From the NCBI GenBank assembly GCA_965242695.1, contig CBDESU010000002.1, forward strand, positions 1,088,001 to 1,152,000: a stretch of DNA of 64,000 nt, given 5' to 3'. The notes beneath the pieces are model-generated. The model was not told where the DNA came from. It ran no database searches and saw only the letters and a list, made by a program, of their open reading frames with translations. Origin of the DNA: Cenarchaeum sp. GTDB taxonomy: Archaea; Thermoproteota; Nitrososphaeria; Nitrososphaerales; Nitrosopumilaceae. Both the position numbers and the translations under genes were made by a program. This document shows, in pieces, positions 5,312 to 57,286 of the stretch; position 1 is the stretch's first letter; every line of letters starts with the position of its first letter.

Positions 5312-5373
5312 GCGCGCCGGGGGCCGCCGTGGGCCCGCGGCCGCTTATTTAGCGCGGGGGCGGGCGGCCATAC

Positions 5374-6414: not shown

Positions 6415-6732
6415 AGAAGCCCCGCCGGGGCCGTCCTAGGCGTCCCGGCACCCCTCCCGCACGGCATCTATATTGATCAGGCATATATACCAGGCCCGCG
6501 CCTGTAGTCCAACGCGTGTTTTGGGTAACGCCGGGGCCGATTCTAGATGGGGCCCGAGAAGAAACCCAGCGTTGGAGGACCGGCCCAGAGCCGGCGGTCC
6601 AACATACAACAACACGGCGGCACTCCGCCGTGTATCATCCTCTGCGGGGCCGGCGCCCGCCCTCCGACCTGGCCGCCGGCACTCCGCCTGCAGAGCGCCT
6701 GGATGCGGGGGCGGGGCCCCCTCCCGCGCCCG

Positions 6733-23971: not shown

Positions 23972-26900
23972 ATGTCTACCGCTAGCGATGCAGGGTTAAC
24001 ATTTGATAAACTACTTGCCACAATCCGTAGTGAACCTAACAAGTCAAAAAGAGGCACTAAATTTGAAGAGTTGGTGGTAAACTTTTTTAAAAAAGACACT
24101 ACTTATAAAAACTATTTCTCGACAGTGTGGTGGTTTAAAGACTGGCCTGAGCGAAATCGCCGTGACACGGGTATTGACATTGTCGGTCAAATTGCTGATA
24201 CAGGAGAATATGTAGGAATACAATGTAAATGCTATGACGATAACACGCCGTTAGATTATGCCGGAGTGACAAAATTTCTTACAGCATGCAAGAGCTATGG
24301 TATATCTAAATATATTTATGCATGCACAAGTGATAAAATCACACCTGAATCCGAACGGACGATACGCGAAAACAAGATTGCCCTGTTAAACAAATCTAGC
24401 TTTCGTAAATGTTCAATCAAAAACTGGAGCTCACACTTTGACAAGATAATCGTCACGGAACCCAAAGCGCTTAGGCGTGATCAAGAAAAGGTCTGCAGTG
24501 ATGTCATAAATGGTTTCAAAAGTCACTCTCGTGGAAAGCTCTTGATGGCATGCGGTACGGGTAAAACTATTACCTCGCTCAGAATTGCTGAAAAATTAGA
24601 GTGCAAGACGGTGTTGTACTTGGTACCGTCCATATCACTCATACAGCAGACAATGAGAGAGTGGTCGGATAATTCTCTTGGCAAGTATCAATACATCGCT
24701 GTTTGTTCTGACGATTCTGCTGGACGTGATGAGGGAGGACAAATCTATGAGCTTGAACGCCCTCCATCCACCAACGCAGCCAGTTTCATTGAGCAACTCT
24801 CAAGACGTGATTTGTATGACATGTGCGTCATTTTTTCTACGTACCAGTCAATTGATATCGTGGCTTCTGGCCTTGACAAACTCGGGGGGGGGGGGGCGCG
24901 GCTGGCGAAAAGACACAAATTGATCTAATACTTTGTGATGAAGCACACAAGACTGCCACCAAGATACATTCCAGCGCAAACAATACGACAAAGTATGTTG
25001 GCTACTATGGTAAAATCCATGATGATGAATTCATTGCAGGCAAAAGGCGCCTTTACATGACTGCCACCCCAAAAATTTACGAAAGCAATAATAAAGACGT
25101 ATATTCAATGAACGACGAAGAAGTGTTTGGCCCCACGTTCAGCATCATATCATTTTATGATGCCGTTCATGGCAAAGAACGTATACTGTCTGACTTTAAG
25201 GTTAAGATAGCTATTTTGCCCGAAGATCGACTTCCTCAATACTTGGGAATTGTTGAGAGCCTGCGTGATCCGAACACTCCTGAAAATACAAAACTTAAAG
25301 CGAAATTGTTAGAACATAAGGCAAAATGTGCGGCCGCGTGGCATGGTATACTAAAACCTGGCGATGATCCGCTAATGAACAAGCCACTTCAAAAAGTTAT
25401 CGTCTTTACCAACACTATTGAAAAATCAAAGGTGTTTGCAGGTGCCATTGAAAAAAAAGAACATGGAAGTTTCACTGCAATCGCAAGTGAGTATAATGCA
25501 CACTATAGGATTCCACAATTGTCCTCTATAAAACACATTGACGGCACAATGTTATCATACCAACGTCGCCTTGGTTTAGATTGGCTAGATCAAAGCAGTG
25601 ATCACCCGAACGAAACTCGCATCATTTCCAATGCAAAGTGTCTATCAGAGGGAGTTGACGTGCCGAGCCTTGATGGGGTAATTTTTATGGAGCCCAAACG
25701 ATCGACAGTTGACGTTGTTCAATCTGTGGGCCGGGTCATGCGTACTGCACCAGATAAAGATTTTGGTTATGTAATATTGCCTGTCGTTGTACCTGGTGGT
25801 TCTTCAGCTGACGAAATACTCAAAAATAGCAGCTTCGCGCATGTGTGGGAAGTGTTAAACGCACTCCGTTCTCATGATCCTAGATTAATTGCCGAACTTA
25901 GCTCTGCTGGATTGGTACGCGATCCCTCTTCACGCAACGGAACCGGCACTCCTCGCATCCAAGTAGATTTTTTGGGCATTGATCCACAAAAGGAAGCACA
26001 ACTATACGCCGACCTTACTTTGGCGATGCGCTCAAAGCTCGTCAAAAAAGTTGGAACTATCGACTATGTTCAAAAGTATGGGGCCAAATTAGGTGCCTAT
26101 GCCAAAAAAATCAAAGATTATATCGATGTTCAGTACAGTAAAAATTCGAACACGATGAAAACAATGGATAAATTTCATCATGATATGAAATTACTGATAA
26201 ATTCTAGCGTGACAATTAATGACTCAATTAAAATGATATCACAACATGTCATATTAAAACATGTTTTCGATGCACTATTTTATGATGATTTTGCTAGTGA
26301 AAACCCCGTGTCTAAAAAACTTGACTCTGTACTAAAATCTTTAAATCTTGGAAATGTCCTTGCCGGCCTTGGAGACTTTTATGAAGATGTGCGGCGTGAA
26401 ACGGAAGTAATTAATAATTCACCTGATGAAGATGAAAAGCATGTGCGACGGCAAGAATTCATGAGGCGTATATATGAAAGCTTCATAACTAGTTCTGATA
26501 AAAAAACATCCATAGAAAAAGGCATTGTCTATACACCTGTCGAAATAGCAGATTTTATTATTAATAGTGTTCAACACTTATTAAAAACAAGAATTAAAAA
26601 AACACTTGGCCAGTATGATGTACAAATACTTGAGCCATTTGCAGGCACCGGTACATTCTTAACAAGATCAATTGACTTGGGACTATTAGACAGGTCGTTG
26701 CCTCAAAAATACTTTACTAGCATGCATGCAAATGAAATTGTACTACTTGCATATTACATTGCGGCAGTCAACATGGAAACCGTCTATGCACGGCGTATGA
26801 AAAAGCTTGGCCAAAAAGTTAAATACTCACCATTTCCCAATATTAACTACACAGATACATTAAAACAGAATCCTCGTGAACATCTTGTTGGATCGGTTGC

Positions 26901-28698
26901 ATTAACACAATACATGGATGATGATTATGTTCAAAACCTCCTTAATAAAATACAACGTCAAAACCTCCAGTGCGTAGAGGTTATCATTGGGAACCCTCCC
27001 TGGGGTGTTGCCCCTAAAGACAAAAAAAGACAAAATGCTCCCACCCGTGCACGAATGCCATACGATGTTCAAGCTCGCATAAATGAGACGTATAGAACGA
27101 AGACTACTGTTGGTGCAAAGAAACTTCATGAATGGTACATCCGTGCTCTGCGGTGGGCATCAGACCGAATTGGGAAATGTGGTATAATTGGATTTGTAAT
27201 AAACGGCAGCCTTGTCACTGCGCCCTCTTTTGCCGGTGTTCGTTTTTTCTTGCATCAAGAATTCGATGAAATACTATACATTGATCTCCGTGGAAAAAAA
27301 GGTAGAAATGGTGACGGGCGTAACATATTTGAATATCCGGGTGTAGGCACTGGTGGGACCACATCGGGTGTTGGATTATTGTTTTTAATAAAAAAACCTG
27401 GCATACACAATTCTAAAAAACACATTTGGTATTATCAGTTAGATGACAAATATAATTCTGGACAGGCCAAACGTGAATTTCTAAAGAAAACAAAGTCGCT
27501 TAAATCGATAACTGATTGGGTAGAGGTCATACCCAATGATAACAATGATTGGTTAGACAAAAGCGATGACACACAATTTTTATCCTACATGCCGATTGAT
27601 ACTTCAAAGGAACGACGTGGGATTTTTATACATAGTAAAAACGGTGTTGTCACTAGTCAAGATGAGTGGGTCTATAATATTTCTAAAACAAATTTAATTA
27701 AAAACATGAAGAATTATATCGAATATATGAATGAAAACATCTATACACCTAATTTCAAAGACGATCATAATCCTAAACGCGGTAAATGGACACGCGATAC
27801 AATTAGTAGATTACGTAATCATGGTATGCAAACTTTTCAAACAAAAAAAATTAGGCCAGCACTATATAGGCCCTTTTTCACTCAATATCTTTATTTTGAC
27901 TGGATATTCAACGCTAGCTGGAACGTAAATGAAATTTTGCCTCGCTCCAGCACTGAAAACAAGATCATCCTGGTTTCATGGGGGGCCGATCTAGATCTTT
28001 CTGTACTAATGACAAACCTTACTCCTGATCTGCACGTTCTTGGCACAAACAAGTGCTTTCCGTTGTACTATTATCAAAATAACACAAAAATTAATAATAT
28101 TGATAACTCTGCACTAGTTGATTTTCAAGATTATTATTCTGATAAAACGATTAGTAGTGATGATATTTTTTATTATGTATATGGAATTTTACACCACCGA
28201 CAGTATCAAGCTACATTTAGAAATAGCTTAAAAAAATATTTGCCGCATATACCATTTGCATCTGATTACAAATCATTTTCATTGATTTCAGAAGTTGGTA
28301 GACAGTTGTCTCATTTGCATCTAAATTTTGACAATCTGAAAACTATCTTACCAGAAGTCATTGTAAACCCGATCACAAATATAAAGAAACCTATTAAAAA
28401 TATTAAATTTGCTGATGATCGCATCCACGCTGAATCCACATTACTAATAAATGGCGATGTTGTCTATGATAATTTACCTAAAGTTACTTATACACTTAAT
28501 GGCCGAACACCGCTAGGGTGGTTCGTTGATCGATGTAGAGAATATCAAAGACCGTATAAAAAATCTGGACTATCTAATCCTATTTTTGAAAATATAACGA
28601 ATGATAGTTTGATGACTCATATAAGACGACTACTACATGTGGGCATTATGACCGAGCGTCATATTGATAAGTTACCAATGGACTTCCTAACTACTTAA
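23972..28698 (+). pseudogene. Type ISP restriction-modification enzyme (Mrr-like nuclease, SF2 helicase, N6-adenine methyltransferase, TRD), frameshifted at a G13 tract
   Basis: ORF1 has GIDIV...IQCK and MACGTGKT. The -1 frame after 24896 gives IDLILCDEAHKT and runs into 25057..28698 (MTATP, EGVDVP, QSVGRVMR, ILEPFAGTGTF, IIGNPPW). The gene is strongly AT-rich. Confidence 0.92.
24884..24896 (+). repeat. G13 homopolymer at the frameshift (candidate phase-variation tract)
   Basis: G11 or G14 would restore a single frame of about 1575 aa. Confidence 0.9.
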
Positions 28699-28759: not shown

Positions 28760-30341
28760 AGAAGGTAGTCATAAACCCCCCTCAGGCGTGACGGGCCCCC
28801 GCGTAGGTCAACAATATTAGGCCATCCGCGTGCGAAAATTGACAACCGGGGTGCTGTATTCCGGCGGCAGACAGGGTGACGTTGGGAACCAAGCAAGAGC
28901 TAGTAGAGGTGGCCGAGGGCTTTTTCGAAAAGGGCCACGACAAGCGCAAGGTCCGGAGTATCGGCGAGTGGCGGCAGGCGGCCCACGACGAAATGATGGA
29001 GGGGCTGCCGGACGGAATGGCCGTGAACAGGTGCACCACTTCCGAGCTGTGCCGCACCCTGCTCGACCGCATGATTGCCGACGACGCGCAGCTGAGGAAG
29101 CTCACGCTCATGGATCCCGTCCTCTTCTTCTACGCAGTGGCCATGGTGGAGGAGATATTCGAGCGAGAGCGGGGGATCCTCCTGTTCGAGGACGACGAGG
29201 GGCGGAGCCGCGATCCGGGCCGCCGCGCAAGGCTCCTGCCCAGGCACATAATCCTGCTGTACCTCTGGTACGCCAAGACGAACGCCTCCCAGGACAGCAT
29301 TGCCATCCAGATGGGGATCGGGCAGAAGACTGCGAGCCGCTACATAGCGATCGCCAAGGATGTGCTGTCCCGGACGCTCCCGACGCCGCGCAAGTACGAC
29401 GAGCACATCCAGAGGCAGACCGCCATGCGCGAGATGAAAAAGTACCTGCCGGGGCCGGGCCGCGGCACGTGCATCGAGGACGGCAGGCTCAACAGGATGC
29501 AGCGGCCGGGGCAGAGGGGCCCGCGCGACAGGTCGTACAGCGGGCGCAGAAAGGCCTGCATGGGCAACACGCTGGGCAGGTTCAACGCCCGCGGCGAGAT
29601 GGTCTCGGCGAGCCCGACCGACAGGGGCACGCTCAACGACGTCACCATGGCGAGGAAGTACCGCCTGAACCTGGGCATAGCCACGCAATACCTGCACGAT
29701 CCGCACGCGGCGCCGAAGGACCGCGTTCGCCGCATCGAGGACACGGGGTTCGCCGGCATCGAGACGGAGGAGCCCGGCGTCGTCTACGGAAGGACGGTCG
29801 GGTACAAGGCGTACCAGAAGCTCGACGACGAGGGCAAGGCCAGGAACCGGGACATCGCGAGAAGAAGGCTGCCCTCGGAGTGGTTCTTTGGGCGCATCAG
29901 CCGCTACGCCCGGATGCGCGATCCGTATGCCGGGACATACAGCGAGTACAGCGACGAGCACAATGTGGTCTGCGGCGTGGTGAACCTGCACCTCATGGCG
30001 GGCGGCGTGCGGGAGGGATCCGGCCACCCGAAGAAGCCCGAGTCCGGGCGGCAGCGCAGGCATCGGCGGGACCTGGAGGCGGACGAAGGGGCGATCGACA
30101 GAGTGGCAGCCGACTCAAGGCGGCTCGTGGAGCACGGCGGATTTATCGCCAGCTAAAGATCGGCGGCAGTGCCTTTCAGGAACGGAAGAGATGGCAAAGG
30201 CAGCCGACTTGAATCCCTTGCACTTCCGCAACACATGAACCTTTCAAGATCGGCGCCGTATTTTCTCACTGCGCTCCGTCGAATTTCGTCAAGTCCGAGG
30301 TTCTGCCCAACGGGGGGGGGGGGGGTTTATGACTACCTTCT
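28760..30341. mobile_element. IS5-family (ISL2/Harbinger-like) insertion sequence
   Basis: Perfect 22-bp TIR AGAAGGTAGTCATAAACCCCCC. TSD is ATT (28757-28759 / 30342-30344), or TA if both ends are drawn 1 bp inward. Confidence 0.9.
28876..30156 (+). CDS. DDE_Tnp_4-like transposase
   Basis: HTH (SQDSIAIQMGIGQKTASRYI), EDG, RP...YSGRRK, G..ND, DTGF.G and N......R...E.FFGRI. Confidence 0.85.
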   Translation: MTLGTKQELVEVAEGFFEKGHDKRKVRSIGEWRQAAHDEMMEGLPDGMAVNRCTTSELCRTLLDRMIADDAQLRKLTLMDPVLFFYAVAMVEEIFERERGILLFEDDEGRSRDPGRRARLLPRHIILLYLWYAKTNASQDSIAIQMGIGQKTASRYIAIAKDVLSRTLPTPRKYDEHIQRQTAMREMKKYLPGPGRGTCIEDGRLNRMQRPGQRGPRDRSYSGRRKACMGNTLGRFNARGEMVSASPTDRGTLNDVTMARKYRLNLGIATQYLHDPHAAPKDRVRRIEDTGFAGIETEEPGVVYGRTVGYKAYQKLDDEGKARNRDIARRRLPSEWFFGRISRYARMRDPYAGTYSEYSDEHNVVCGVVNLHLMAGGVREGSGHPKKPESGRQRRHRRDLEADEGAIDRVAADSRRLVEHGGFIAS

Positions 30342-30832: not shown

Positions 30833-31311
30833 GGCTGTGGGCCACCACAATAGTATTTAAGAATATGCCGCCTTCAGGCGCCCCGTGGCCGTCGCCATTG
30901 CGCCTGCGCCGCCTGTAGAGCCTGCCGCCTGCCCTATTTCGTACGTTGCGCGGCATGTCGGGGCCGCTACTTCGCTACACCTGCCCTGCGGTCCACATGC
31001 CGATCATTGGCCGGCAAAAGGATGGTGGGGCGCCACCGGGACCGGAGGATGCCTTTCCACCCGTCACGTCCTCTGGTGGTGAGGCCTAGAGTGGCATCAG
31101 CCGGTGATTGGAGGGATCTGGCGGCTACGCCGAGTGCGACACGCGCTTGGTTCATCTGGCGGTGAGAGTCCGATGCACCGTGTGCCGCAACGGTTGCTGG
31201 AGTACCGGCGCCCGCAGATGCATCTGCTCCCACGATGAACATCGGCCATGGAGCGTCCGGCGCCCCGTGGCCCCGCAACCGTGATATACCCGCATGCGGC
31301 GTGGCCCAGTC

Positions 31312-31515
31312 GTGGACGACGAAGACAGGCGGTGGATCGAGGAATACGAGGCCCGTCGCCACGATCCCTGGTCACTCTCCAAGAAATCGCTGATTCGAAT
31401 CGCACAGGCGATGAGCGCTCGCATTGACGAGCTTACTGACACACAAAGATCGCCAGAGGGCGAGGAGATTATCAAGGATGACCCTGTCGTAGAAGACGGC
31501 GAAGTATACATGTGA
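31312..31515 (+). CDS. Small acidic helical hypothetical protein, first gene of a two-gene operon
   Basis: GTG 31312 (or ATG 31294) near an ATATA box; its stop abuts the next gene. Confidence 0.55.
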   Translation: MDDEDRRWIEEYEARRHDPWSLSKKSLIRIAQAMSARIDELTDTQRSPEGEEIIKDDPVVEDGEVYM

Positions 31516-31526
31516 GGCGAGCAGGC

Positions 31527-32960
31527 ATGTTTGTGGAGAAGCGGCGCTACCAGTACTCTAGGGCGAGGTTTTTCGAGCGACAGCACGGCACCGAGTTTCT
31601 CCGGTTCGAGATGGACCAGATGCTGCGCTTTGCCGCGGCCAAGAAGGTGCGCGGCGATGCCGAGCTCGACGGCTACGTGGCGTGGATGCGCCCCCCGTAC
31701 TTTGTCCTGCTTCCGACGCCCACCACGTCGAGCATCTACGTGGTGTGCCGCGCCGCCGACGAGGTGCCGTACCCGGACATGAACGCATTCTCTACCGTGA
31801 AGGGCAAGATCGGGCCGGCCCTGCTGCCCGGCGGCCGCACGGGCCATGTCATGCAGGCCGAGAGGATCGAAGGGGCAAGGCCGGGGTTTGGGGAGATCGC
31901 GCCGGAGATATCGCACAAGGAGTTTGTCGGACTGCTGTTTGAAAAGTGGCGCAACGTGGCCGAGACGACGCAACAGCTTGTCGCGCACACCCTGACCAGC
32001 TCGCCCGACCTGCCGGGGAGGCGCACGGGCGGCTTTACCGTCACGATCGACGCCCTCTCGAAGAGCGCGATTCTCAGCACGCTTGCCGCCGACCTGCGCC
32101 GCTTCGTGCCGGCCGAGGTCAGGGCGGGCAGGCGCCTGTCCGTCAGCCTGCCTGAGATGGGCTCGGCCGGTTCGGTGGCCGCCGCCAGGCTACCGCCCCT
32201 AGAGTGGGGCAGTAGCACGGCGCAGCTTGAGAGCATACCGGCCGCGGTGGACGCAAGGCTGGACAGGACTCTTGGCGGGGGCGGGTCGGCCGCGGCCGAG
32301 CACTCCATCACGCTGCTCAAGAAGGCCGGCGGCCCGCTCCCGCTCGGCCACCGGGGAGTGCGCATGTCCGACTATCCGGCCGTCCTCGAAGAGCACGTCG
32401 AGCGCCGCTCGCACTCGTACGACGCAAGCCCCGAGGTGTTCAAGTTCCTGCTTGCCGCAAGGATGCACCGGCCGGCGGTGAGCGCCGCCGTACTCGACTC
32501 CTCCGTCAAGGGGTACCGGGCGATGATCGAACGGTTCATCGGCGGCCACGAGTACCTCTCGGCCGCGGCGGGGAGCGGGCAGTTTCTAGACATGGGGTTT
32601 GGCGGCAGGCCGCTGTCGGTCTACAGCGTTGCCGCCTCGCTGGCTCGCTCGCGGGCGGCAGGCGGCGTGTCGGCAGGCGACATCGAGAGGGCGGGGGCCA
32701 TGTACATCGACAACCTCAAGGAGGTCTTTGACGTGATACACGACGGAGCGTACGACAAGTTCTCGGCGCGGGCGCCCATAAAGTACGACGAGAGGAGGGT
32801 CTTTGTCTACCTTGACGAGCATCCCGGGAGCTCGGTGTCCGACGTGTCGGACGCCGTGCAGCTTGCGCCGGACGAGGCCAGCCGTCTGATCGACTCGCTG
32901 CACAAGAAGGGGCTGCTGTACGAGCCTGCCGCGGGGCGGCACAGCGCCATTCCGATCTGA
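31527..32960 (+). CDS. Degenerate (ATPase-dead) MCM-like protein with C-terminal winged helix
   Basis: Lid segments KFLLAARMHRPAVS and RPLSVYSVAASLAR.....VSAGDIERA and the wH end GLLYEP..G parallel the MCM in this window; Walker A/B are eroded. Confidence 0.6.
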   Translation: MFVEKRRYQYSRARFFERQHGTEFLRFEMDQMLRFAAAKKVRGDAELDGYVAWMRPPYFVLLPTPTTSSIYVVCRAADEVPYPDMNAFSTVKGKIGPALLPGGRTGHVMQAERIEGARPGFGEIAPEISHKEFVGLLFEKWRNVAETTQQLVAHTLTSSPDLPGRRTGGFTVTIDALSKSAILSTLAADLRRFVPAEVRAGRRLSVSLPEMGSAGSVAAARLPPLEWGSSTAQLESIPAAVDARLDRTLGGGGSAAAEHSITLLKKAGGPLPLGHRGVRMSDYPAVLEEHVERRSHSYDASPEVFKFLLAARMHRPAVSAAVLDSSVKGYRAMIERFIGGHEYLSAAAGSGQFLDMGFGGRPLSVYSVAASLARSRAAGGVSAGDIERAGAMYIDNLKEVFDVIHDGAYDKFSARAPIKYDERRVFVYLDEHPGSSVSDVSDAVQLAPDEASRLIDSLHKKGLLYEPAAGRHSAIPI

Positions 32961-47774: not shown

Positions 47775-48728
47775 CTACCTTTTGGCCGCGCCGAGCTCGG
47801 CCAGCATCGCCGACAGCTGGATCTCGGGGTTCGAGCCGGCGAGTATGCGGTAGTCGTACTTTGCCATGATCTGCAGGACCTCGGGCAGGCTCTCGCCGGC
47901 CTCCCTGTAGGCTGCGCTGCACGCGTACTTTAGAAAGTCCGAGTCGGACATGCCGTACACCCTTGTCAGCTCGATCATCTTCTCGCGCGCCTCGGCGAGC
48001 CTGCCCTCGAGCGCCGAGCGCACCACCCCGTCTACGTCGCCGGCCCTCGACAGGCCGGCGGCGGCCCTCACGCCGTCCTCGGTCACGGAGCCGGTCCCGG
48101 CCGCGGCCTGGAGTATGTTTATGGCGTTGCGCATGTCTCCGCCTGCGTAGTCGCACACGGCCTTGATCCCCTTTGCATCGGCCTTTACCTTCTCGGCCTT
48201 TGCAATCCTCTTGAGGCTGGCCGCGATGTCGTCGTCCGAGAGGGCCTTGAACTTGAAGACGGCGCACCTGCTCTGTATGGGGTCGATGATCCTCGATATG
48301 TTGTTGGCCACGAGTATGAACCTGCATATGCGCGAGGCGTCCTCGATGATGCGCCTGAGGGCCGTCTGCGCATCGGACGTCATCTCGTCGGCCTCGTCTA
48401 GTATGATGATCTTGAAGGGTATGTCGTCAAAGGCGGCAAAGTTCGAGAACCGCTTGACCTTTTCGCGGACCATGTTGATCCCGCGCTCGTCGGACGCGTT
48501 CAGCTCGAGCAGGTTGTCGCCAAGGTGGGCGCCGAGGACCTGGCGCGCGATGCACAGCGCCGTGGTCGTCTTGCCCACGCCGGCCGAGCCCGAGAACATG
48601 AGGTGCGGCATGTCGGCGGGGTTCTTGAGCAGCGCCTCTAGGCTGCCGACGGCGTCGGACTGGCCGGCCACGTCGGCGAGCTTCTGGGGCCTGTACTTTT
48701 CGACCCACATCGTCCCTCCGGGCGCCAT
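47775..48728 (-). CDS. rfcS: Replication factor C small subunit
   Basis: Motifs WVEKYRP, GSAGVGKTT, ELNASDERG, LDEAD and QSRC. Confidence 0.96.
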   Translation of the reverse strand: MAPGGTMWVEKYRPQKLADVAGQSDAVGSLEALLKNPADMPHLMFSGSAGVGKTTTALCIARQVLGAHLGDNLLELNASDERGINMVREKVKRFSNFAAFDDIPFKIIILDEADEMTSDAQTALRRIIEDASRICRFILVANNISRIIDPIQSRCAVFKFKALSDDDIAASLKRIAKAEKVKADAKGIKAVCDYAGGDMRNAINILQAAAGTGSVTEDGVRAAAGLSRAGDVDGVVRSALEGRLAEAREKMIELTRVYGMSDSDFLKYACSAAYREAGESLPEVLQIMAKYDYRILAGSNPEIQLSAMLAELGAAKR

Positions 48729-48761
48729 GCCCGGCCGTCGCCGGCGGCCCGCTATTAAGAT

Positions 48762-48872
48762 ACCACATACGGGCTCGGGGGGCGCGCGCGGCCTGCGCCA
48801 TGCGTCTTGCTATGCTCCTTTGCGGTCGCGTTGAACCACATACGGGCTCGGGGGGCGCGCGCGGCCTGCGCC
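48762..48872. repeat. 38-bp direct repeat upstream of the rfcS promoter
   Basis: ACCACATACGGGCTCGGGGGGCGCGCGCGGCCTGCGCC at 48762 and 48835. Confidence 0.85.
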
Positions 48873-49052
48873 CCCGCCGCGCGGCTGCCCCCTGACCGGC
48901 GGCGCGGGGCGTCTTCCGGCAGGCGGAGACCCGCTTGTGTAGGCCCCTTGCGGGGCTCGGTGCGTACAGGGGCGCGCTGCCACGCGTCCAGCGCCGGGCG
49001 TCGGGCGCCGGCTCGATGGCATCGCCTCCTCGAACGGGCGGTCGGCCTGGGG

Positions 49053-49394
49053 ATGAAGAGGGCCTGCGCTCAGTGCGGCAAGGACGCCGGCAGGTATGTC
49101 GTGGCGGCCCGTCTCTACGACAAGAGGAAGAGGGCTTGCGCTCAGTGCGGCAAGGACGCACTGCACATGCTGTTCATTGGGGGGGGGGGGTGGGTGGGTG
49201 GGTGGGCATGTACTGCAAGGAAGTGCAGGGTCAGGGTTCGCAGTGCGATGTCGTGGCGGGCCGATCATCTTTGCGTGCGCATCATGCGCATCGGGCCCCG
49301 GCCGGGGAGGCTCTCCATCCCCTGCGGACCGGCCGCGGCCGGCGGCGCCGTGGGATCAATGCTGGCCGTGGGAGGAGAGGATGCGATCGCCTAG
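49053..49394 (+). pseudogene. Decayed Zn-ribbon protein gene (tentative)
   Basis: Duplicated KRACAQCGKDA (49055-49087 and 49127-49159), G12 at 49179-49190, further Cys motifs in shifting frames. Confidence 0.35.
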
Positions 49395-50033
49395 CGAGGG
49401 CGCGTTGGGTGCGGCCGTGGAGGCGAAGGGAGGCGGCGGCGGCGGGTTGCCGCCGCTGTCTACAGGACGGGATCGTCGATCGTCACTGCCAGAGGGTTTG
49501 CGAGGATTCGGGACCGGGGCGCCTGGTACGGTGCAACACCGGGTGTGCTCGGCATTGACCTCAGCTCAACGGTGGTTCAACCGCTGCTTTTTTTAGGCGG
49601 CGCACGGCGATCGGGGACATGGGCAATTTGGGGACGCCCGAGGGGGTAGTTGCCGCTTCTCGGCCTTTGCTAGACATCGCCGGGGCGTCTGCCATTTCTA
49701 CAGGGGCGCGTTGGAGCGCGGCGCGATGTCAGGCCGCCTGTTCGAGGCTATCCAATACTTCGAACCGAGCCGCAGCGCAAAAAGCGCGCCCCGTGCGATG
49801 TGCTGATCGGCTGTTCGCAGTGCCGGGGCATGCGGGCAGGCAGGGCCAGGGCTGCGGCCACGGCCTTGTGGAACCTGCTGGCAGTTGGCGGGTCGAATAC
49901 GCCCGCGGCGTTCCCGTTGAGAGGATGCGGCCGCGGCCCTGCGGAGCCGTCAGGCGAGGGTTCGTTCCGGACAGCCGCGCGACGGCCAGTGGGGTGGCCC
50001 ACAACGCGCTTGCGCCTTACGGGAGGGTCCGAC

Positions 50034-51911
50034 ATGATGCTTGAGCGCTGGACTAGCATCGCGCTGGCCGCAATCGCAGCGTGCACCGCACTTGGCATAT
50101 CTCAGGTGGACCACCTGCCAATGATTGACGAGCGCGTCATATTTCTCGTCGAAGTCGCACTGGCAGTAGGCATAGGCCTGTTTGTCTTCCAGTACTCGCG
50201 GCACAGCGATCGACTCATCGACAGACACGTAGACGAGGTGGGGTTGCTGATGAAACGCAACGAAAGGGCAAAGCAAGTGCGCAAGATTCGTGCAAACCGT
50301 GCGCTGTATTCCAACATGCACGCCATGGCAGACATATGCTCCAAGCTGGTCAATATGGCGGGCGGGCAGTCCGGCATAGCCGCGACAGAGTGGGAGTCGT
50401 TCAAGTCAGACGTTATTGCCATGCACGGCCAGATAGAGGATCGCTTGGACAGCCTCGGACGAAACTTGGAATCTTCTGACCATCTTGACGATGTAATATA
50501 CGACAAAATACGCAATGCGGTCGACATGTGGGACGAAAAGATTCGCATCGACGACGACAATAAAACCGTCAATGTCCTACAGTACCAGACGATGCTGGAT
50601 ATGCTAAACCAAGTACTACCCCGACTGGGGCGTCGCCAAGGGCTAGGCATGGACGTACCCTTGTCGATGTTCAGGCCTGCCGAATTCATAAGCCAGTCCG
50701 ATCGACTTACGATTGCCCTTGATCGTGACACGTATCCCCCAGGCGCGGCGATCCACATAACGCTGACGGCGGCAGGGCGACTACCTGGCCGGAAGATCAT
50801 TGTCACCATACTAGATATGGACCTCAATGCCGTGGCCCGGAAAACGGTAGTTGCACCGGGACATTCAAGGTCGCCGATCGCTCTGCTCCGGGCCCGGCTC
50901 GGACCGCGGGGATCCCAAGACGATCCCGCGAGCCAGGGAGGCGGGTGCAGAGTCGCCGCTACTGTGGTGGACATGAGGCCGAAGGGTGCGTCGGAGGGTG
51001 GACAGTACATCGTACGCGCTGCGTGCGGAGGCTTGATCTCCGAGACCACCTTCGATGTCGTGTCGACGCCTCCAGAAGTGCAGACCGACAAATCCGAATT
51101 CCTGATGGGAGGGGACATGATCGTGACCGTCATAGACCCTGCCGCCAACAAGGACGGAACAAAGAGGGACATTGCGGGCGCATCGGACCAATCGCGACTT
51201 GTCATTGATTCCCCGCACGGCCAGATCGACGGCTACAAGCTTGTGGAGACTGGCAATTCAACGGGTGTATTCCAAGGATTAGTGCGGATCATTGGCGTCC
51301 GTAACGATGGCTCGATCAGGGGCACAGAAATCGACGGGGCAAACATCGACAAGACGCAGGGCAAGGGAAACGAGGATGGCGCCATAGTTTGCGGTCCAGG
51401 CCAAGCTATCCATATCCGGTACACGAACGAAATCGGAAGTGTGGCGACGACGGTATTTGGCATGGGGGTTAATCCCGTCATAGAGCTAGACAAAAAACAA
51501 TATGCGTGCTTTGACAGGGTGGACATATGTGTGATTGCACCCCACATTGCAGGAGAGGAAGAAGCGCCGCCGGTTATAGGGGACAGCAGACAAGACTGCT
51601 GGGTGTCGATTTCCTCCGCCAAGGCGTCGATCGAAGGATATAGGCTGATCGAAAGCGGGCCTGAAAGCGGCATATTCACGGGTGCGGTATCGCTCACGGG
51701 GCTTGCCTCCATGGAGGGCGACGGATCGCCTAAAGGGATACGATGTGGAGAGACAGGCGGTGCGGGTCCGAACAGAGGAAGGCTGGCGTGTGGATCGAAC
51801 GACACGGTCACGGTGCGCGTCACGTCCGCGTTCGCAGAGCCTGTAGAGACATCTGCGCACATACGCCAGTACGCGAACGTACATGATAAGAAAGATCCGC
51901 CCGCCGGATAG
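50034..51911 (+). CDS. Membrane protein with helical region and two S-layer-like Ig repeats
   Basis: Two N-terminal TM helices; repeats YKLVETGNSTGVFQG.V and YRLIESGPESGIFTG.V; lower GC than the host. Confidence 0.7.
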   Translation: MMLERWTSIALAAIAACTALGISQVDHLPMIDERVIFLVEVALAVGIGLFVFQYSRHSDRLIDRHVDEVGLLMKRNERAKQVRKIRANRALYSNMHAMADICSKLVNMAGGQSGIAATEWESFKSDVIAMHGQIEDRLDSLGRNLESSDHLDDVIYDKIRNAVDMWDEKIRIDDDNKTVNVLQYQTMLDMLNQVLPRLGRRQGLGMDVPLSMFRPAEFISQSDRLTIALDRDTYPPGAAIHITLTAAGRLPGRKIIVTILDMDLNAVARKTVVAPGHSRSPIALLRARLGPRGSQDDPASQGGGCRVAATVVDMRPKGASEGGQYIVRAACGGLISETTFDVVSTPPEVQTDKSEFLMGGDMIVTVIDPAANKDGTKRDIAGASDQSRLVIDSPHGQIDGYKLVETGNSTGVFQGLVRIIGVRNDGSIRGTEIDGANIDKTQGKGNEDGAIVCGPGQAIHIRYTNEIGSVATTVFGMGVNPVIELDKKQYACFDRVDICVIAPHIAGEEEAPPVIGDSRQDCWVSISSAKASIEGYRLIESGPESGIFTGAVSLTGLASMEGDGSPKGIRCGETGGAGPNRGRLACGSNDTVTVRVTSAFAEPVETSAHIRQYANVHDKKDPPAG

Positions 51912-52136
51912 GCGAAAAGGCTACTTTGTCGGATGTGTGGCGCCTGACTCTGGGGCACCCGTGACACCTTGTGGTCATCTCGGGCCGCACTGCAAAGACT
52001 TTTTGTGACTGGAGGTGGGGCAGTGATAGGAATCCCCGACACCACAGTGCTCAAGCATCATGCCGGCATGGAACTGGACGGCACCACCTCTCAGCATTAT
52101 GCCCGTGGAAAAACAAGTCTTGTTACAGCCGTTCCG

Positions 52137-52403
52137 CTAGTAGACATAGACGTAGCCTGGGCTACCGTGTACACCCACATCGGACTTCATCCCCATTGCC
52201 CGAAAGTGTCGTTCGACGACCTTTGCAATCCGCTCGTCGTCGGCGTCCCAGTGATGCCACCATGCGACAGTTCTCCCTATGGCCTTGTGCTCGCCGCGCC
52301 GACGGTCGGGATCGTCAGTGACGCCGATCGTCCAGTGCTTGTACGCGTAGCCGCTACTTCTGACCAGATCTGCAATCGCGAGCGCGATTCCCTTCATGTT
52401 CAT
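52137..52403 (-). CDS. Small GIY-YIG-like protein
   Basis: WTIGVTDDPDRRRGEH, A..VE..F and C-terminal YVYVY; TATATA at about 52426. Confidence 0.65.
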   Translation of the reverse strand: MNMKGIALAIADLVRSSGYAYKHWTIGVTDDPDRRRGEHKAIGRTVAWWHHWDADDERIAKVVERHFRAMGMKSDVGVHGSPGYVYVY

Positions 52404-52517
52404 GGCAGGAGGGCAGGCGCGGTAGTATATATGTATTTTAAACCGCTAGCCTGCCTTGGTTCGAGCAACCCTGAGAGTCTTGGCATATGATTGTGATGCG
52501 CTGGGCATTGGCCCGGC

Positions 52518-52894
52518 CCGGCCGGGCCGGGCCTGTGGGCGCGCCGCTCCGGCCGGGCCGGGCCTGTGGGCGCGCCGCTCCGGCCGGGCCGGGCCTGTGG
52601 GCGCGCCGCTCCGGCCGGGCCGGGCCTGTGGGCGCGCCGCTCCGGCCGGGCCGGGCCTGTGGGCGCGCCGCTCCGGCCGGGCCGGGCCTGTGGGCGCGCC
52701 GCTCCGGCCGGGCCGGGCCTGTGGGCGCGCCGCTCCGGCCGGGCCGGGCCTGTGGGCGCGCCGCTCCGGCCGGGCCGGGCCTGTGGGCGCGCCGCTCCGG
52801 CCGGGCCGGGCCTGTGGGCGCGCCGCTCCGGCCGGGCCGGGCCTGTGGGCGCGCCGCTCCGGCCGGGCCGGGCCTGTGGGCGCGCCGCTCCGGC
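52518..52894. repeat. 31-bp perfect tandem repeat, 12 copies (VNTR)
   Basis: Unit CCGGCCGGGCCGGGCCTGTGGGCGCGCCGCT with no spacers. Confidence 0.95.
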
Positions 52895-53097
52895 TAGGCA
52901 GGGGCGCAGACGCCCCTAGCGACGCCTAAACTCTTATAGTATCGTACGGTACCGCGCCAGCGGTGTGAAAACATTTTGTCTAGAATGCAGATCAAACTTG
53001 ACCATCTCCCACCTCCAAGATCGCATGCGAAGTGTGGCATGTCACATTCGGCCAGAGGTGCCCAGGCGGGGACATGCCGCGGGGACGGTGGGGTAGC

Positions 53098-53634
53098 ATG
53101 AGCGCCGCCGAGCGCCTCGCGCAGGTGCATGCCACCGGCTTTGAGCTCGAAGAGGTAAAGTTCTCGTTCACGCGCGACGTGAAGATCGGCGTCGCCGGCA
53201 TCGACATAAGCGCAAAGGCCGGCGAGATCATGAACCTGCCGCGCTACGTCGCCAACGTGCTCGAGGAGGGGGGCCACGGCCAGATACAGGACGTCGACAT
53301 GGTCGTCGAGCTCAAGCAGGCCACCGTCAAGGAGAACGTCCAGGGCGAGTTCGAGCTCGCCTCGCTAGACGACCACTTCTACATACGCCTCAAGGCGTAC
53401 ATGAAGAAGCTGCCCGAGTCAGACTACGACAAGGTCGAGAGCATGCTCAACTCGCTCGTGCGCAAGCGGCACGGCAAGCTCGTCCACCTGGCCGACGCCT
53501 CTAGGCTGACGGCCGAGCTGTCGGCCAAGATGACGGTCGAGGAGCGCGAGTTCTACAACGCCCTCCACGAGATCAGCGAGCAGTTCACCCGCCAGATAAT
53601 GGGCGACGGGACCAGGGGGGGCAAGGCCCGATGA
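53098..53634 (+). CDS. DNA replication GINS family protein
   Basis: Motifs LPRYVA..L, L..LD.HFY, R..KL and MTVEE..FY; overlaps the mcm start. Confidence 0.88.
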   Translation: MSAAERLAQVHATGFELEEVKFSFTRDVKIGVAGIDISAKAGEIMNLPRYVANVLEEGGHGQIQDVDMVVELKQATVKENVQGEFELASLDDHFYIRLKAYMKKLPESDYDKVESMLNSLVRKRHGKLVHLADASRLTAELSAKMTVEEREFYNALHEISEQFTRQIMGDGTRGGKAR

Positions 53635-55832
53635 GCTCTGCACAGCAGGAGCAACAGTGGGAGCGCCAGCGCCAGCGCCAGGATCAGGCCGCTTCCGGCG
53701 GCGGCGACGGCGGTGCGGGGAGCGGCCCCGGGGCCGATCCCGGGGACGGCGGCGGCCAGCGCGGGGACATGACCGACTCGGCGCTGTCCGACCTATCAAA
53801 GATATTCCTCTCGAGGCACAAGGACAAGGAGGGCCGCTACAAGTACGTCGAGCAGATCGACGAGATGATGCCAAAGGGATCCACGTACATCGCGGTCGAC
53901 TACAACGACCTCGTCTCGTTTCCGCGCCTCGATGCCGAGTTTACCGACGAGCCCGACGGCGTGCTGCGCGCGTTCTCTAGCGCGATCGGCGAGATACTGC
54001 GCGAGCGGTTCCCAAAGTACGCCGACAAGATCGCCGACAAGATACGCGCGCGCGTCGTAAACTACCCCGTCCAGCGCAACCTGCGCAGGATCAACGCCGA
54101 GATAATCAACAAGATGACGAGCGTGTCGGGGATGGTCGTGCGCGCCTCCGAGGTAAAGCCGCTCGCCAAGGAGCTGGTCTACCTGTGCCCCGCCGGCCAC
54201 TACACAAAGGCAGTCCAGTTCAAGGGCATGAGCGTCTCGGCGCCGTCAAAGTGCGCCGAGCCAAAGTGCGGCATGCGCGACCTCGATCCGCAGCTCGAGC
54301 TGAGCAAGTTCATCGACTTCCAGATACTGCGCCTGCAGGAGCTGCCCGAGGACCTCCCGCCCGGCCAGCTGCCCCACTACATCGACGTGGCAATCAAGCA
54401 GGACCTCGTCGACAACGCCCGCCCGGGCGACAGGATCATACTGACGGGCATAGTGCGCATCGAGCAGGAGGCCGTGACGGGCGTGAGCCGCGCCAACAGC
54501 GCCCTCTTCCAGCAGAAGATCGACGGCAACAACGTAGAGTACCTTGGCGGGCGCGGCTCGAAGACGTCGCGCCGCACCGAGCGCGAGGAGATATCGCCCG
54601 AGGAGGAAAAGATCATAAAGGCCCTGTCCAACTCGGACGACATCTACCAAAAGCTGATAAACTCGTTCGCCCCGCACATACGCGGCCAGGAGACCATAAA
54701 GGAGTCCATACTGCTGCTCATCGTCGGCTCGACGCAGCGCCTGCTGCAGGACGGCAGCAAGATACGCGGCGACATCAACGTGTTCCTCGTCGGCGACCCC
54801 GGCACGGCAAAGAGCGAGATGCTAAAGTTCTGCGCCCGGATAGCGCCGAGGGGCCTGTACACGTCGGGCCGCGGCTCGACGGCCGCCGGCCTGACTGCCG
54901 CCGTCGTGCGCGACAAGTCGGGGATAATGATGCTGGAGGCCGGCGCCGTCGTGCTCGGAGACCAGGGCCTAGTGTGCATCGACGAGTTCGACAAGATGAA
55001 GCCCGAGGACCGCAGCGCCCTGCACGAGGTGATGGAGCAGCAGTCTGCGAGCATCGCAAAGGGCGGGATCGTGGCGACCCTCAACGCCCGCACGTCAATA
55101 CTCGCGGCGGCAAACCCCATGTACGGCAAGTACGACCCGTTCAAGAACATCACCGAGAATGTGAACCTCCCGATACCGCTGCTCACGCGGTTCGACCTGA
55201 TCTTCGTCCTGCGCGACATACCGGCGGCCGAAAAGGACCGCAACATCGCAAAGCACATCATCGACCTGCACACGCCGGTCGGCACCGAGAACCGCTCCCT
55301 CATAGACGCCGAGATACTCACAAAGTACCTGGCGTACGCAAAGCGGTTCAACCCGAGCCTGACAAAGGCGGCCGAGGAGAAGATCATAGACTACTACCTA
55401 AAGATGCGCACCGTAGAGTCCGAGGAGATGGTCACGGTGACGCCGCGCCAGCTAGAGGGGCTCGTGCGGCTAGCGACGGCCAGGGCCCGGCTCCTCATGA
55501 AGCCGCAGGTCGACGAGGACGACGCGCAGAGGGCCATCGACCTCATGCAGAGCATGCTGCAGGACGCCGGCGTCGACGTCAACACGGGCCAGGTCGACCT
55601 CGGGGTGCTGCAGGGCAGGCCGCGCAGCGAGGTCTCCAAGATGCAGCTGTTCATGGACATACTGCGCTCGCTCGAGGGCGAGAACAAGTCGCCCGTCGAG
55701 GAAAAGGCGTTCATCGGCGAGCTTACAAAGTCGGGCAAGTTCTCCGAGGAGGAGGCGCGCAACTACATCCGCAAGATGTCAAAGGAGTCTGCCATATACG
55801 AGTCCAAGCCGAACCACTTCAACAGAGTGTAG
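53631..55832 (+). CDS. mcm: Minichromosome maintenance replicative helicase
   Basis: Zn finger, RGDINVFLVGDPGTAKS, IDEFDKM, AAANP, LLTRFD, TPRQLE and wH domain. Confidence 0.97.
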   Translation: MSSAQQEQQWERQRQRQDQAASGGGDGGAGSGPGADPGDGGGQRGDMTDSALSDLSKIFLSRHKDKEGRYKYVEQIDEMMPKGSTYIAVDYNDLVSFPRLDAEFTDEPDGVLRAFSSAIGEILRERFPKYADKIADKIRARVVNYPVQRNLRRINAEIINKMTSVSGMVVRASEVKPLAKELVYLCPAGHYTKAVQFKGMSVSAPSKCAEPKCGMRDLDPQLELSKFIDFQILRLQELPEDLPPGQLPHYIDVAIKQDLVDNARPGDRIILTGIVRIEQEAVTGVSRANSALFQQKIDGNNVEYLGGRGSKTSRRTEREEISPEEEKIIKALSNSDDIYQKLINSFAPHIRGQETIKESILLLIVGSTQRLLQDGSKIRGDINVFLVGDPGTAKSEMLKFCARIAPRGLYTSGRGSTAAGLTAAVVRDKSGIMMLEAGAVVLGDQGLVCIDEFDKMKPEDRSALHEVMEQQSASIAKGGIVATLNARTSILAAANPMYGKYDPFKNITENVNLPIPLLTRFDLIFVLRDIPAAEKDRNIAKHIIDLHTPVGTENRSLIDAEILTKYLAYAKRFNPSLTKAAEEKIIDYYLKMRTVESEEMVTVTPRQLEGLVRLATARARLLMKPQVDEDDAQRAIDLMQSMLQDAGVDVNTGQVDLGVLQGRPRSEVSKMQLFMDILRSLEGENKSPVEEKAFIGELTKSGKFSEEEARNYIRKMSKESAIYESKPNHFNRV

Positions 55833-55934: not shown

Positions 55935-57286
55935 CTACGCGCAACTGCCTGAGGCTTTGGCCTTGGGATTTGCACCCTCGCGAACAATCTCGTCCATGGC
56001 CCTCATGTCTACGTCCCAGAACCCCCCGAGGCCGCCCCTGACTTGGCCGTACTCGTTTATGCGGAGGCGCTCGGCACCTGCGGCCTCTCCCCGCCCATCC
56101 GCTCCAAAGCAGTGTATGGCGACATCGTCGGGCCCCAGCGGATGGCCTTTTTTCTCGACGTATGCAAGCAGCGGGTACAGCAGGTGGTCGCTGTGGGTGG
56201 TGAATATAACCTGCCTGTCCTCTTCCACCGCCTGCCGCACCGTGATCTTCGAGAGGGCGACCTGGGCTGCGGGATCAAGGTGCATCTCCGGCTCTTCAAT
56301 GGCCACGATCGATCCTCGGGAGGAGTGTGCGAGTGCGGCCAGCACGGTCCGCGGCCGGCTTGTGCCTGGCCCCGTTCCCGTGACAGTGCCGGGCACCCGC
56401 CGCATGTCCTGCCCCCGCCCCGCCCCGCCGCCCTCGACCCCCGCGGCGGCGATGCTGCCTGCGATTTGCCCTAGGCCCACTTCTTCGAGCAGGCTCGACA
56501 CCTTTTCCGGGGGCGGGCTGTCGCCGCCGCGGTAACGGGGAGGCGCGGCCCATGGCAGGGGAACGCACCGCAGCCCGCCAAGGAGGGGGGCAAAGTACCA
56601 GCCCCGCCAAACATGCAGTCAAACGCCTTTGCCGCATCGCCACCCGCAAGATCGGCCCGTATGCAGGGTGCGAACAGGCCGTCCGAGCGGGCCGGCACGG
56701 GAGCGCCGCCACTCCCCTCTGCGCCGAATACGAGCGCCTTGCCGACGCCTTGGCTGAGCGAATGCTCCAGGCGCACGGCGCCCTGGCCCGCCGCCGACGA
56801 GCCGAAGCAGACATCGACGGAGGCATCCATGCCGGTCGGAGACAGGGACTTGTCAAGCGCCATGCGGTACGAGAAGCGGGTGCCGATCTCGCCGCTCCCG
56901 CCGGCTGCGATCATGCTGTGCCCGCCCACCCGGATGCTGGCATTGCGATCCGCGTCCCCTCCCGCGGGCTGCCCGGCGTCGGGGCCGGAGCCGCTTGGAT
57001 GCTCCGGCCCGCGGCCTTCTAGGACGGACTTGAGCAGGGCCAGGCCTCGCAGGACGGCAGACATGCCCGAGGCGGTGGGGCCAATAAGCACCGTGATTTT
57101 TCTCACGTCGATGCTCAGGTCTGCATGCCCGTCGAAGTTGCGCAAGTCCACGCGATCCAGGATCGTGCGCCGAGCTGCCTGCGTTCTATGCGTATGCCGT
57201 GAAATCTGCCGCGACATCGACTGCTGGGCAGGGGCCATGGGCGGAGTGAAGAGGCGGCATCGATACGTCTTTGTCATGTCGTTCAA
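55935..57286 (-). pseudogene. Frameshifted AAA_15/AAA_21 (ABC-class, OLD/AbiEii-like) ATPase
   Basis: LRNF..H..L.I....TVLIGPTASGMS (Walker A Lys replaced by Met) in 56471..57286; IEEPEMHLDP..Q and IFTTHSD in 55935..56501; the two parts are in different frames. Confidence 0.75.

Follow-up and report, generated by a model that had tools for sequence, protein, structure and literature searches.

An MCM-like protein family without ATPase motifs, encoded beside a small acidic partner in a patchily distributed archaeal cassette

Results

The locus

In this study, we describe a gene of a 64,000-nucleotide stretch of Cenarchaeum sp. DNA (contig CBDESU010000002.1, positions 1,088,001 to 1,152,000; the whole stretch is called the window below) that encodes a relative of the replicative helicase MCM, together with the small gene for an acidic protein that precedes it. 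The MCM-like protein is catalytically inert and derived from MCM: it retains an OB domain, an AAA+ core, a lid of MCM type and a winged helix, and has lost the Walker A and B motifs, the arginine finger and the zinc subdomain. The window has a G+C content of about 70% and belongs to a 3.9-Mb archaeal genome whose named relatives are metagenome-assembled genomes of Nitrosopumilus; its sequence is also present in sponge metagenomes. An uninterrupted frame of 482 amino acids (aa) occupies 31512-32960 of the forward strand and opens with a GTG codon, from which all residue numbers of the MCM-like protein are counted here. Its true start is probably the ATG at 31527, because every close homologue begins MF.., and the acidic open reading frame (ORF), which contains 19 aspartate and glutamate residues, stops 11 nucleotides (nt) ahead of this ATG. 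The G+C content at third codon positions (GC3) is 0.87 for the MCM-like ORF, equal to that of the surrounding host genes, and 0.42 for the Type ISP genes upstream. The features are as follows.

31294-31515, forward strand: small acidic partner gene, 73 aa, isoelectric point (pI) 4.6 (ORF list; upstream homologues in relatives; tblastn)
31527-32960, forward strand: MCM-like pseudo-ATPase gene, 477 aa from the probable ATG start (frame opens at GTG 31512; AlphaFold2 model, fold and profile matches)
31653-31874, forward strand: N-terminal OB-like beta domain, residues 48-121, with a helix (31-45) ahead of it (five model strands)
31914-32411, forward strand: degenerate AAA+ alpha/beta core, residues 135-300 (model; 4r7z_A, Z 18.4)
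32037-32081, forward strand: position equivalent to Walker A, strand 176-181 and the start of helix 185-196, FTVTIDALSKSAILS (local profile alignment, not significant alone)
32424-32744, forward strand: MCM-type AAA+ lid, residues 305-411, with invariant R379 and G365-(K/R)-P-x-S (hhalign; hmmsearch against the PDB)
32772-32951, forward strand: C-terminal winged helix, residues 421-480 (predicted local distance difference test, pLDDT, 89-97; 2m45_A, the Sulfolobus MCM winged helix, E 1.1e-4)
53032-55832, forward strand: comparator outside the cassette, host Gins23 (53032-53634; NCBIfam 3.6e-29) and genuine MCM (53631-55832; NCBIfam 1.7e-217)

An MCM fold without catalytic motifs

The AlphaFold2 model used here was built from an alignment of 43 family members and reached a pLDDT of 89.8 and a predicted template modelling score (pTM) of 0.87; with 19 close sequences the pLDDT was 55.3. 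It comprises a helix (31-45), five strands (48-121), a linker, an alpha/beta core (135-300), a helical lid (305-411) and a winged helix made of three helices and one hairpin (421-480). Foldseek against the PDB returned MCM chains in all 40 of the best 40 rows (best E 4.7e-14), with at least 421 matches at E <= 1e-3. In a wide VIA-align search of 48,161 representative chains, the top 11 were likewise all MCM, with Z scores of 16.0-19.1 over 240-322 aligned residues (for the Pyrococcus chain PfMCM-AAA, 4r7z_A, Z 18.4 and a root-mean-square deviation of 3.9 over 240 residues), followed by members of the same AAA+ branch, namely RavA (13.1), BchI (11.6) and ComM (9.6). These alignments begin at model residues 29-39, corresponding to the OB part of the MCM N-terminal domain, and cover residues 29-411, and therefore both the OB and the AAA+ tier are matched. 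A fold search of BFVD returned helicase-type viral proteins only, none of them closer than MCM, and the winged helix also resembles those of MarR-type, Z-alpha and RPA32C proteins (VIA Z about 10). The initial annotation of this gene, which was made by reading the sequence against the window's own MCM, had proposed an MCM-type fold of OB, AAA+ and winged-helix domains with a beta-rich, OB-like N-terminus, and the model bears out both.

At the sequence level the relationship is remote. BLASTP of the MCM-like protein against the window's own MCM gave a best E of 0.99, which is not significant, and neither Pfam PF00493 nor NCBIfam NF040949 matched it at E <= 1 (1.7e-217 for the genuine MCM). Pfam yielded sub-threshold winged-helix matches only (MarR_2, 9.7e-5; MCM_WH_arc, 0.013), and Pfam, NCBIfam and PHROGs together nothing beyond this weak C-terminal winged helix. 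The family profile of 43 members was more sensitive. Searched against PDB sequences, it ranked Sulfolobus MCM 4fdg_B first (E 2.6e-5, over the lid helix and winged helix), followed by more MCM, MCM8, Mcm7 and MCM3 chains; searched against the host genome in six frames, it matched nothing but its own gene and the C-terminal part of MCM (E 1.3e-4). Aligned by hhalign with a profile of 30 MCMs drawn from genomes of the same phylum, it gave a probability of 96.5% and an E of 7.8e-10 over 161 columns, which span the whole lid and winged helix. Three segment pairings that had been proposed by eye, KFLLAARMHRPAVS with KYLAYAKRFNPSLT, GRPLSVYSVAASLAR.. with TPRQLEGLVRLATARAR.. and LYEPAAGRH with IYESKPNHF, were recovered exactly in this alignment.

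The AAA+ core alone did not align significantly with MCM, either globally or locally (local E 0.043). In the local alignment GDPGTAKS stands opposite ALS(K)SAILS (ALSKSAILS in the window), a placement that agrees with the model, in which strand 176-181 is followed by helix 185-196. The proposed P-loop pairing of RTGGFTVTIDALSKSAIL with RGDINVFLVGDPGTAKSEML thus recurs and fits the order of strand and helix, although the alignment that contains it does not reach significance. For the proposed match of LLTRFDL with VRMSDYP, strand order sets LL(S/T)RFDL against (R/K)xSDYP, a residue mapping that is itself inferred.

The claim that the protein is ATPase-dead held up across the family. A Walker A-type motif was found in 0/43 members and 30/30 MCMs, the RFD arginine finger in 0/43 and 30/30, and the hhhDE pattern of Walker B in 4/43 and 28/30. 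At the site equivalent to Walker A both the glycine-rich loop and the conserved lysine are gone, and the region of the arginine finger, mapped from strand order, is occupied by S-D-x-P, whose aspartate D287 is invariant. An acidic residue past the third strand (position 240) is kept in 28 of the 43 members. The core additionally carries an invariant SSP..R.GG motif and E263, and the residues invariant in the family (G54, P88, P165, G173, G174, D287 and R379) do not look like a new active site. Judged from the AlphaFold2 model, strands 223-226 and 232-238 may be a remnant of the helix-2 insert. No hairpin is predicted at residues 250-262 (pLDDT down to 67), and the region that would carry the pre-sensor-1 hairpin seems to be about 10 residues shorter than in MCM and is modelled as a loop. 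Since the whole protein contains a single cysteine, it has no zinc finger, as had been noted at the outset; with only one helix (31-45) and no helical bundle ahead of the OB strands, both the zinc-binding subdomain B and the helical subdomain A are absent.

Compared with archaeal MCM (Sulfolobus 4fdg/8eag, Pyrococcus 4r7z and the window's MCM), the protein therefore has the same domain order of OB, AAA+ core, lid and winged helix, but lacks Walker A, Walker B, SRFD and subdomains A and B, and measures 477 aa as against 673-775 aa.

Conservation and distribution of the family

Twenty close relatives were present in a collection clustered at 90%, and an exhaustive search recovered 65 cluster representatives at E <= 1e-3, 42 of them at E <= 1e-10, mostly 440-500 aa long. 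No longer fused forms of the protein (875-2495 aa) were found, although this is weak evidence. Length (about 470 aa) and domain order are kept among the 43 members down to 17-20% identity. For pairs of Nitrosopumilus-type copies with a synonymous distance (dS) below 1.5 and 69-99% amino-acid identity, the ratio of nonsynonymous to synonymous substitution (dN/dS) was 0.08-0.20; pairs involving the window's copy are uninformative, because their synonymous sites are saturated. Both results are in line with the early observation that the frame is intact and not simply decaying. Three of the 11 copies in the class are nevertheless broken, namely that of G004, from the same genus (frameshift), that of G340 (one TAG) and that of G253 (four TGA and a shift); here and below, G and L numbers are our own handles for genomes and loci. 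Purifying selection together with this proportion of broken copies indicates a gene that is functional where intact yet dispensable.

The family was found in 3 of the 61 nearest genomes and in 11 of 401 genomes of the class, representing 7 of 81 genera (the unpublished G209 included), a patchy and mobile occurrence that differs from that of genuine MCM, present in 41/41 genomes sampled from the phylum. One distant member is a hypothetical protein of an Asgard archaeon, and "hypothetical protein" is the only name that any member bears in the sources searched. In the ESM Atlas the protein lies beside three archaeal clusters without names, which have 464, 81 and 139 members and scores of 0.95-0.96; MCM_bind is also listed there, at 0.82, which is below the level that counts. 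The protein thus belongs to a conserved archaeal family of about 470 aa and is no recent duplicate of the host MCM that is now decaying. The term "paralog", which the initial annotation had used, does not fit if a recent one is meant, as there is no similarity that BLASTP detects and the protein belongs to an old, patchy and mobile family.

A conserved small partner

The proposal that the gene forms an operon with a small acidic protein was supported, in that the two are encoded together and the partner is conserved across relatives. Of 12 independent loci with readable upstream DNA, 10 have a small acidic gene immediately ahead of the MCM-like gene (the window, G004, L001, L002, L005, L009, L010/L054, L012, L013 and L057) and two lack it (L011 and L059). 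Small proteins of the relatives matched the window's 73-aa ORF in tblastn (E 1.5e-7 and 7e-23). Every copy is acidic (pI 4.0-5.4), with conservation concentrated in the C-terminal half, where the motif ..IDEL..Q(R/H)(S/T)..GEEII.DD....(E/D)E.Y(L/M) is found. The small protein belongs to no Pfam, NCBIfam, PHROG or PADLOC family and has no similarity to profiles of MCM, of the MCM-like family or of the zinc ribbon described next. We also considered it as a degenerate GINS and rejected this (hhalign probability 0.1%).

Seven low-GC loci have, in addition, a basic zinc-ribbon gene downstream, which encodes 63-68 aa with four cysteines, 26 invariant positions and a pI of about 10, and which is inverted in L057; it was found neither in the window's genome nor at the G004 locus. 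Beyond these genes nothing is common to the loci. The cassette is thus the MCM-like gene and the small acidic gene, joined by the zinc ribbon in low-GC relatives, with a size of 1.7-3 kb.

Two variants of the 5' part of the cassette were noticed. Contigs of runs X6 and X7 lack two bases at window positions 31510-31511, a loss which, if nothing else differs nearby, joins the small ORF in frame to the MCM-like ORF (…EVY-VRRAG-MFVEK…); no fusion of about 550 aa exists among the 20 close homologues, so the loss may be compensated. In L001, the small acidic gene (7706-7969) has an IS3-type HTH_Tnp_1 domain (8.6e-10) as its N-terminal half and the promoter element described below is missing upstream, and an insertion sequence (IS) seems to have rebuilt the 5' end of that cassette.

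Mobility and neighbourhoods

The cassette is patchy, lies at unrelated sites and is often found in mobile or variable islands. A metagenome contig (L010) and genome G371 (L054) have exactly 2,974 bp in common at 98.4% identity, holding a 200-aa ORF and the three cassette genes, between unrelated flanks. Only 31311-32929 of the window is common to G004 (77%), while the flanks of the G004 copy match another contig of the window's genome (93% and 86%); the counterpart of the insertion site in that genome holds about 300 bp of other sequence and is not a clean empty site. In G384 (L057) the cassette sits between RFC and GINS-MCM-Hel308 and is bracketed by 89-nt direct repeats that are 83% identical. 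Genes for tyrosine recombinases occur within 7 kb of the cassette in L010 (1.8e-9) and L012 (8e-11), and weakly in L011 (0.0056), and no convincing att sites were found at these three loci. Other neighbours are an IS3 remnant (L005), HNH endonucleases (L013 and L059), an IS66 transposase (L058) and a GmrSD/EVE/AlbA_2 protein (L001), and the genes around the cassettes are otherwise of no recognised kind.

To the left of the window's cassette lies a DDE_Tnp_4 transposase, and then split low-GC genes of Type ISP. A link to this restriction-modification (RM) locus had been suggested and looks incidental, the Type ISP genes being foreign in composition and the neighbours being different at every other locus examined.

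Some features of these neighbourhoods are recorded here in their own right. The Type ISP RM gene (23972-28698) is split into 23972-24928 (Mrr nuclease and the start of the helicase) and 25057-28698 (Helicase_C, coupler, N6_Mtase and Type_ISP_C); with 37-43% G+C and a GC3 of 0.42 against 70% G+C for the genome, it has the look of a foreign gene acquired recently, and it may be inactivated. Parts of 27000-28670 are uncovered by contigs of X6 and X7, which does not show them to be absent. The DDE_Tnp_4 gene (28876-30156) has a host-like GC3 of 0.90, and in X4 its summed contig depth exceeds that of the adjacent DNA severalfold, as a multi-copy IS would. About 14 consecutive G (30312-30326), in the gene-free stretch upstream of the cassette, are reduced by three bases in X4 and X7; in L010, 11 consecutive G lie at the left end of the shared 2,974 bp (about 6709-6723), which may be coincidence. 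Encoded 1 kb ahead of the L002 cassette is a 555-aa protein of no family (5137-6804), which carries the motif R-x4-H in its C-terminal part and weakly matches CARF_HEPN (PADLOC 0.0036); it is possibly the product of a HEPN-type abortive-infection gene.

A promoter element shared with the host replication locus

The 89-nt repeat of G384 led us to a conserved non-coding element, GATCAAwTGATC-N18-AwTTGATC with flanking bases, which immediately precedes the cassette in 8 of the 10 upstream regions aligned and is kept though the cassette proteins of those loci are only 38-44% identical. It is missing upstream of the L001 and L005 cassettes. The same element is found in the divergent intergenic region between RFC and GINS-MCM in G020, G023, G372, G371 (two loci), G243 and G384. 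A looser form of the pattern occurred in two of the five Nitrosopumilaceae MCM loci scanned (G020 and G023), and, with the specific pattern, the 38-nt core was located in the RFC-GINS intergenic region in six of the six such loci checked. The intergenic element of G384 is the second copy of its 89-nt repeat. Over 150 nt, G020, a genome without the cassette, matches the DNA ahead of the G371 cassette (L054) at 91.3% identity (E 1e-56); these 150 nt cover the first RFC codons and the entire RFC-GINS intergenic region. Comparing the core upstream of a cassette with that of its own host gave 37/38 identical positions in G372, 37/38 in G371 and 36/38 in G384, against 29-35/38 for other cassette-GINS comparisons. 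These matched cores and the 150-nt identity imply that Nitrosopumilus-like cassettes carry a copy of the host RFC/GINS-MCM promoter region. The matching could reflect repeated recombination with the host site, as the arrangement in G384 suggests, or selection for response to the same regulator.

Two other explanations were considered. As an RNA the element matches no Rfam family, its consensus fold is a weak one (-5.5 kcal/mol), and the outer helix shows no compensatory changes. The RFC-GINS region might be a chromosomal origin; the extremes of the cumulative GC skew of the window's genome lie elsewhere (at 0.68 and 1.38 Mb of contig C2, with the locus at about 1.14 Mb), and the literature searched does not give the position of the Nitrosopumilus origin.

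Apart from the cassette, the 38-nt inverted repeat lies between the divergent RFC and GINS-MCM genes of Nitrosopumilaceae at L015, L018 and L062-L065, and its sequence and position make it a candidate for an operator that controls replication genes of ammonia-oxidising archaea. RFC (47775-48728, reverse strand) and GINS (53032), adjacent in relatives, are parted in the window by about 4.3 kb of lower-GC DNA (48729-53031), which includes a 703-aa ORF that matches no family (49800-51911) and a second ORF (52456-52929) in which a Pro/Gly/Arg-rich unit of about 30 aa is repeated about four times in tandem; this RFC-GINS site is the one at which the G384 cassette sits. Downstream of MCM, an ATPase of ABC/OLD type (55935-57286, reverse strand), similar to the defence proteins NsnB, AriA and GajA (PADLOC 3.4e-19) and split over two ORFs, is inserted between MCM and Hel308. 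The Hel308-type helicase genes are tandem (58325-60895 and 61213-63546), where relatives such as G384 have one. Two complete RFC/GINS/MCM loci were found in G371 (L063 and L064, contigs C15 and C25), with MCMs 75-76% identical to that of G384; either the bin mixes two strains or the replication cluster is truly duplicated.

Discussion

The MCM-like protein is predicted to be unable to hydrolyse ATP or unwind DNA, and therefore it is better thought of as a structural mimic than as a motor. The initial annotation had put forward a helicase regulator, a dominant-negative subunit or an anti-viral decoy as candidate roles. Since its promoter is shared with GINS-MCM in relatives, a role tied to the replicative helicase is favoured, and we regard the protein as a candidate non-enzymatic modulator or hijacker of the host replication machinery. 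In the reading that we tentatively prefer, and which we hold to be not far from probable, it is a mimic of an MCM subunit that is made with the host helicase and binds the helicase machinery or DNA for the benefit of the cassette, with the acidic protein as its presumed partner. On this account the protein would be made together with the host helicase genes, and the surfaces it has retained (OB, ring interface, lid and winged helix) would engage the MCM ring, GINS, the loader or DNA. Such engagement could couple host replication to the mobile cassette or divert it to the cassette's benefit, and the small acidic protein may be a bound partner or regulator of the MCM-like protein. A more far-reaching version describes a mobile module for replisome hijacking: the captured RFC/GINS-MCM promoter would time the making of a pseudo-subunit to that of the host helicase, the pseudo-subunit would enter or cap MCM rings or bind the 38-nt repeat through its winged helix, maintenance would be tied to host replication, the protein would be an archaeal analogue of MCM-BP, and the promoter would double as a landing pad beside GINS. 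This version we consider unlikely.

Several observations weigh against the subunit-mimic reading. The positions of Walker B, sensor 1 and the arginine finger were placed by the order of secondary structure and by a local alignment that is not significant. The promoter element was not found upstream of the window's copy, nor is there an integrase near it (the sole PF00589 match in the genome is on another contig) or any convincing iteron or flanking repeat around it. Where integrases do accompany the cassette, in L010, L011 and L012, they have no similarity to one another. A search of viral contigs with the alignment of close homologues found no relatives, phage records gave no match to the window protein, and plasmid records gave none to the window protein or two distant members. 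The GC3 of the window's MCM-like ORF (0.87) is host-like, and contigs from sponge-metagenome runs of two other studies, with 178-182 differences over about 2.2 kb, have the cassette followed by the same SDR gene. From the last two points the cassette looks to have been resident in the window's lineage for some time and is possibly domesticated.

An alternative to the subunit mimic, though a rather unlikely one, is that the MCM scaffold serves a DNA-binding regulator. Its winged helix, perhaps with the OB domain or the zinc ribbon, would bind the 38-nt repeat, and the protein would autoregulate the cassette and tune the GINS-MCM operon. In favour of this, the inverted half-sites persist ahead of cassettes that share only 38-44% protein identity, and the element is common to the RFC-GINS region, co-varies with the host's copy and is explained neither by an RNA family nor by a covarying fold. 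The winged helix is also canonical and similar to that of MarR-type repressors (VIA Z about 10; Pfam MarR_2 9.7e-5), but in sequence it is closest to the winged helix of MCM, which is mainly a protein-interaction or regulatory domain. Further, a repressor needs no conserved body of 420 aa composed of OB domain, AAA+ core and lid. The window's copy, L001 and L005 all lack the element upstream, and its likeness to the host's could be due to mere recombination with the host promoter.

We consider it similarly improbable that the protein is a domesticated host factor, an archaeal counterpart of MCM-BP that chaperones, stores or unloads MCM and for which the mobile contexts are secondary. The host-like GC3 of the window's gene and its same downstream SDR position in two other studies would suit such a factor, as would the low dN/dS, the G384 copy within the replication cluster and, as a lead only, the MCM_bind cluster of the ESM Atlas (0.82). 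A gene found in 11/401 genomes with 3/11 copies broken, however, fits a dispensable accessory gene better, near-identical cassettes occur in unrelated flanks, and Pfam MCM_bind did not match at E <= 1.

A role in defence or counter-defence is very unlikely in our view. It would rest on an MCM decoy that detects or sequesters viral proteins directed against the host helicase, an idea prompted in the initial annotation by the RM neighbour. Patchiness and mobility are typical of defence genes, and neighbours of defence type do occur: Type ISP in the window, GmrSD/EVE/Schlafen-AlbA_2 in L001 and a weak CARF_HEPN match (E 0.0036) in L002. These neighbours nevertheless vary by locus and are absent from most, and the window's RM genes are foreign and split. 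The cassette has no recognisable effector, be it a nuclease, protease, NADase or membrane protein, and PADLOC-DB 2.0 has no family at E <= 0.01 for the window's two proteins, the zinc ribbon or two further MCM-like members, the SoFic match of L011 (0.0067, over its winged helix) being at chance level. That the gene has no function and is merely left over from an old duplication of MCM or from a mobile element now dead is scarcely credible: the catalytic motifs are all gone and 3 of the 11 class copies are disrupted, but the frame is intact, about 470 aa and seven invariant residues are kept across 43 members down to 17-20% identity, dN/dS is 0.08-0.20, the partner gene is conserved and co-variation in the alignment sufficed for a confident fold.

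Relatives of MCM that have lost catalysis, and MCMs on archaeal elements, are already known. In eukaryotes, MCM-BP, MCMDC2 and the mei-MCMs have no helicase activity and bind MCM subunits or recombination intermediates. Their likeness to the present family is an analogy of working only: the domain of life, size and genomic setting differ, PF09739 of MCM-BP did not match the MCM-like protein at E <= 1, and the 50 VIA rows contained no eukaryotic non-catalytic MCM chain. Among archaea, Methanopyrus kandleri MCM2 is the second chromosomal MCM of one species, and we know of no conserved small partner or mobile cassette for it. Passages of PMC3972481 describe this protein (3F8T) as a catalytically inactive MCM homolog. 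Against our model it gave a VIA Z of 16.9 over 295 aligned residues at 15% identity, which shows no special kinship, because it is no closer to the model than active MCMs are. Genes for MCM and Orc1/Cdc6 also ride archaeal viruses, plasmids and thaumarchaeal cryptic integrated elements with tyrosine recombinases, and those of integrated elements are presumed to recruit the host replisome, according to the sections of PMC6563490 on such elements. Those sections treat the MCMs as helicases and make no mention of an inactivated one, in contrast to the present family, which has lost its ATPase motifs. What appears new is an ATPase-dead family with a partner and mobility: we found no description of an MCM family of such architecture in the literature searched, although an arCOG entry may exist in supplementary tables.

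In conclusion, archaeal MCM is a simple model of the eukaryotic replicative helicase, and non-catalytic MCMs have so far comprised eukaryotic MCM-BP, MCMDC2 and the mei-MCMs and the single archaeal oddity of M. kandleri MCM2. Here a whole archaeal family, unannotated in every library searched, has a partner, is mobile and is tied in Nitrosopumilus relatives to the promoter of the helicase operon. If its proteins bind MCM or GINS, they would be a natural tool for studying how helicase assembly is modulated or subverted in archaea, and a possible parallel to MCM-BP; if they bind the shared promoter element, they would point to how replication genes are regulated in ammonia-oxidising archaea.

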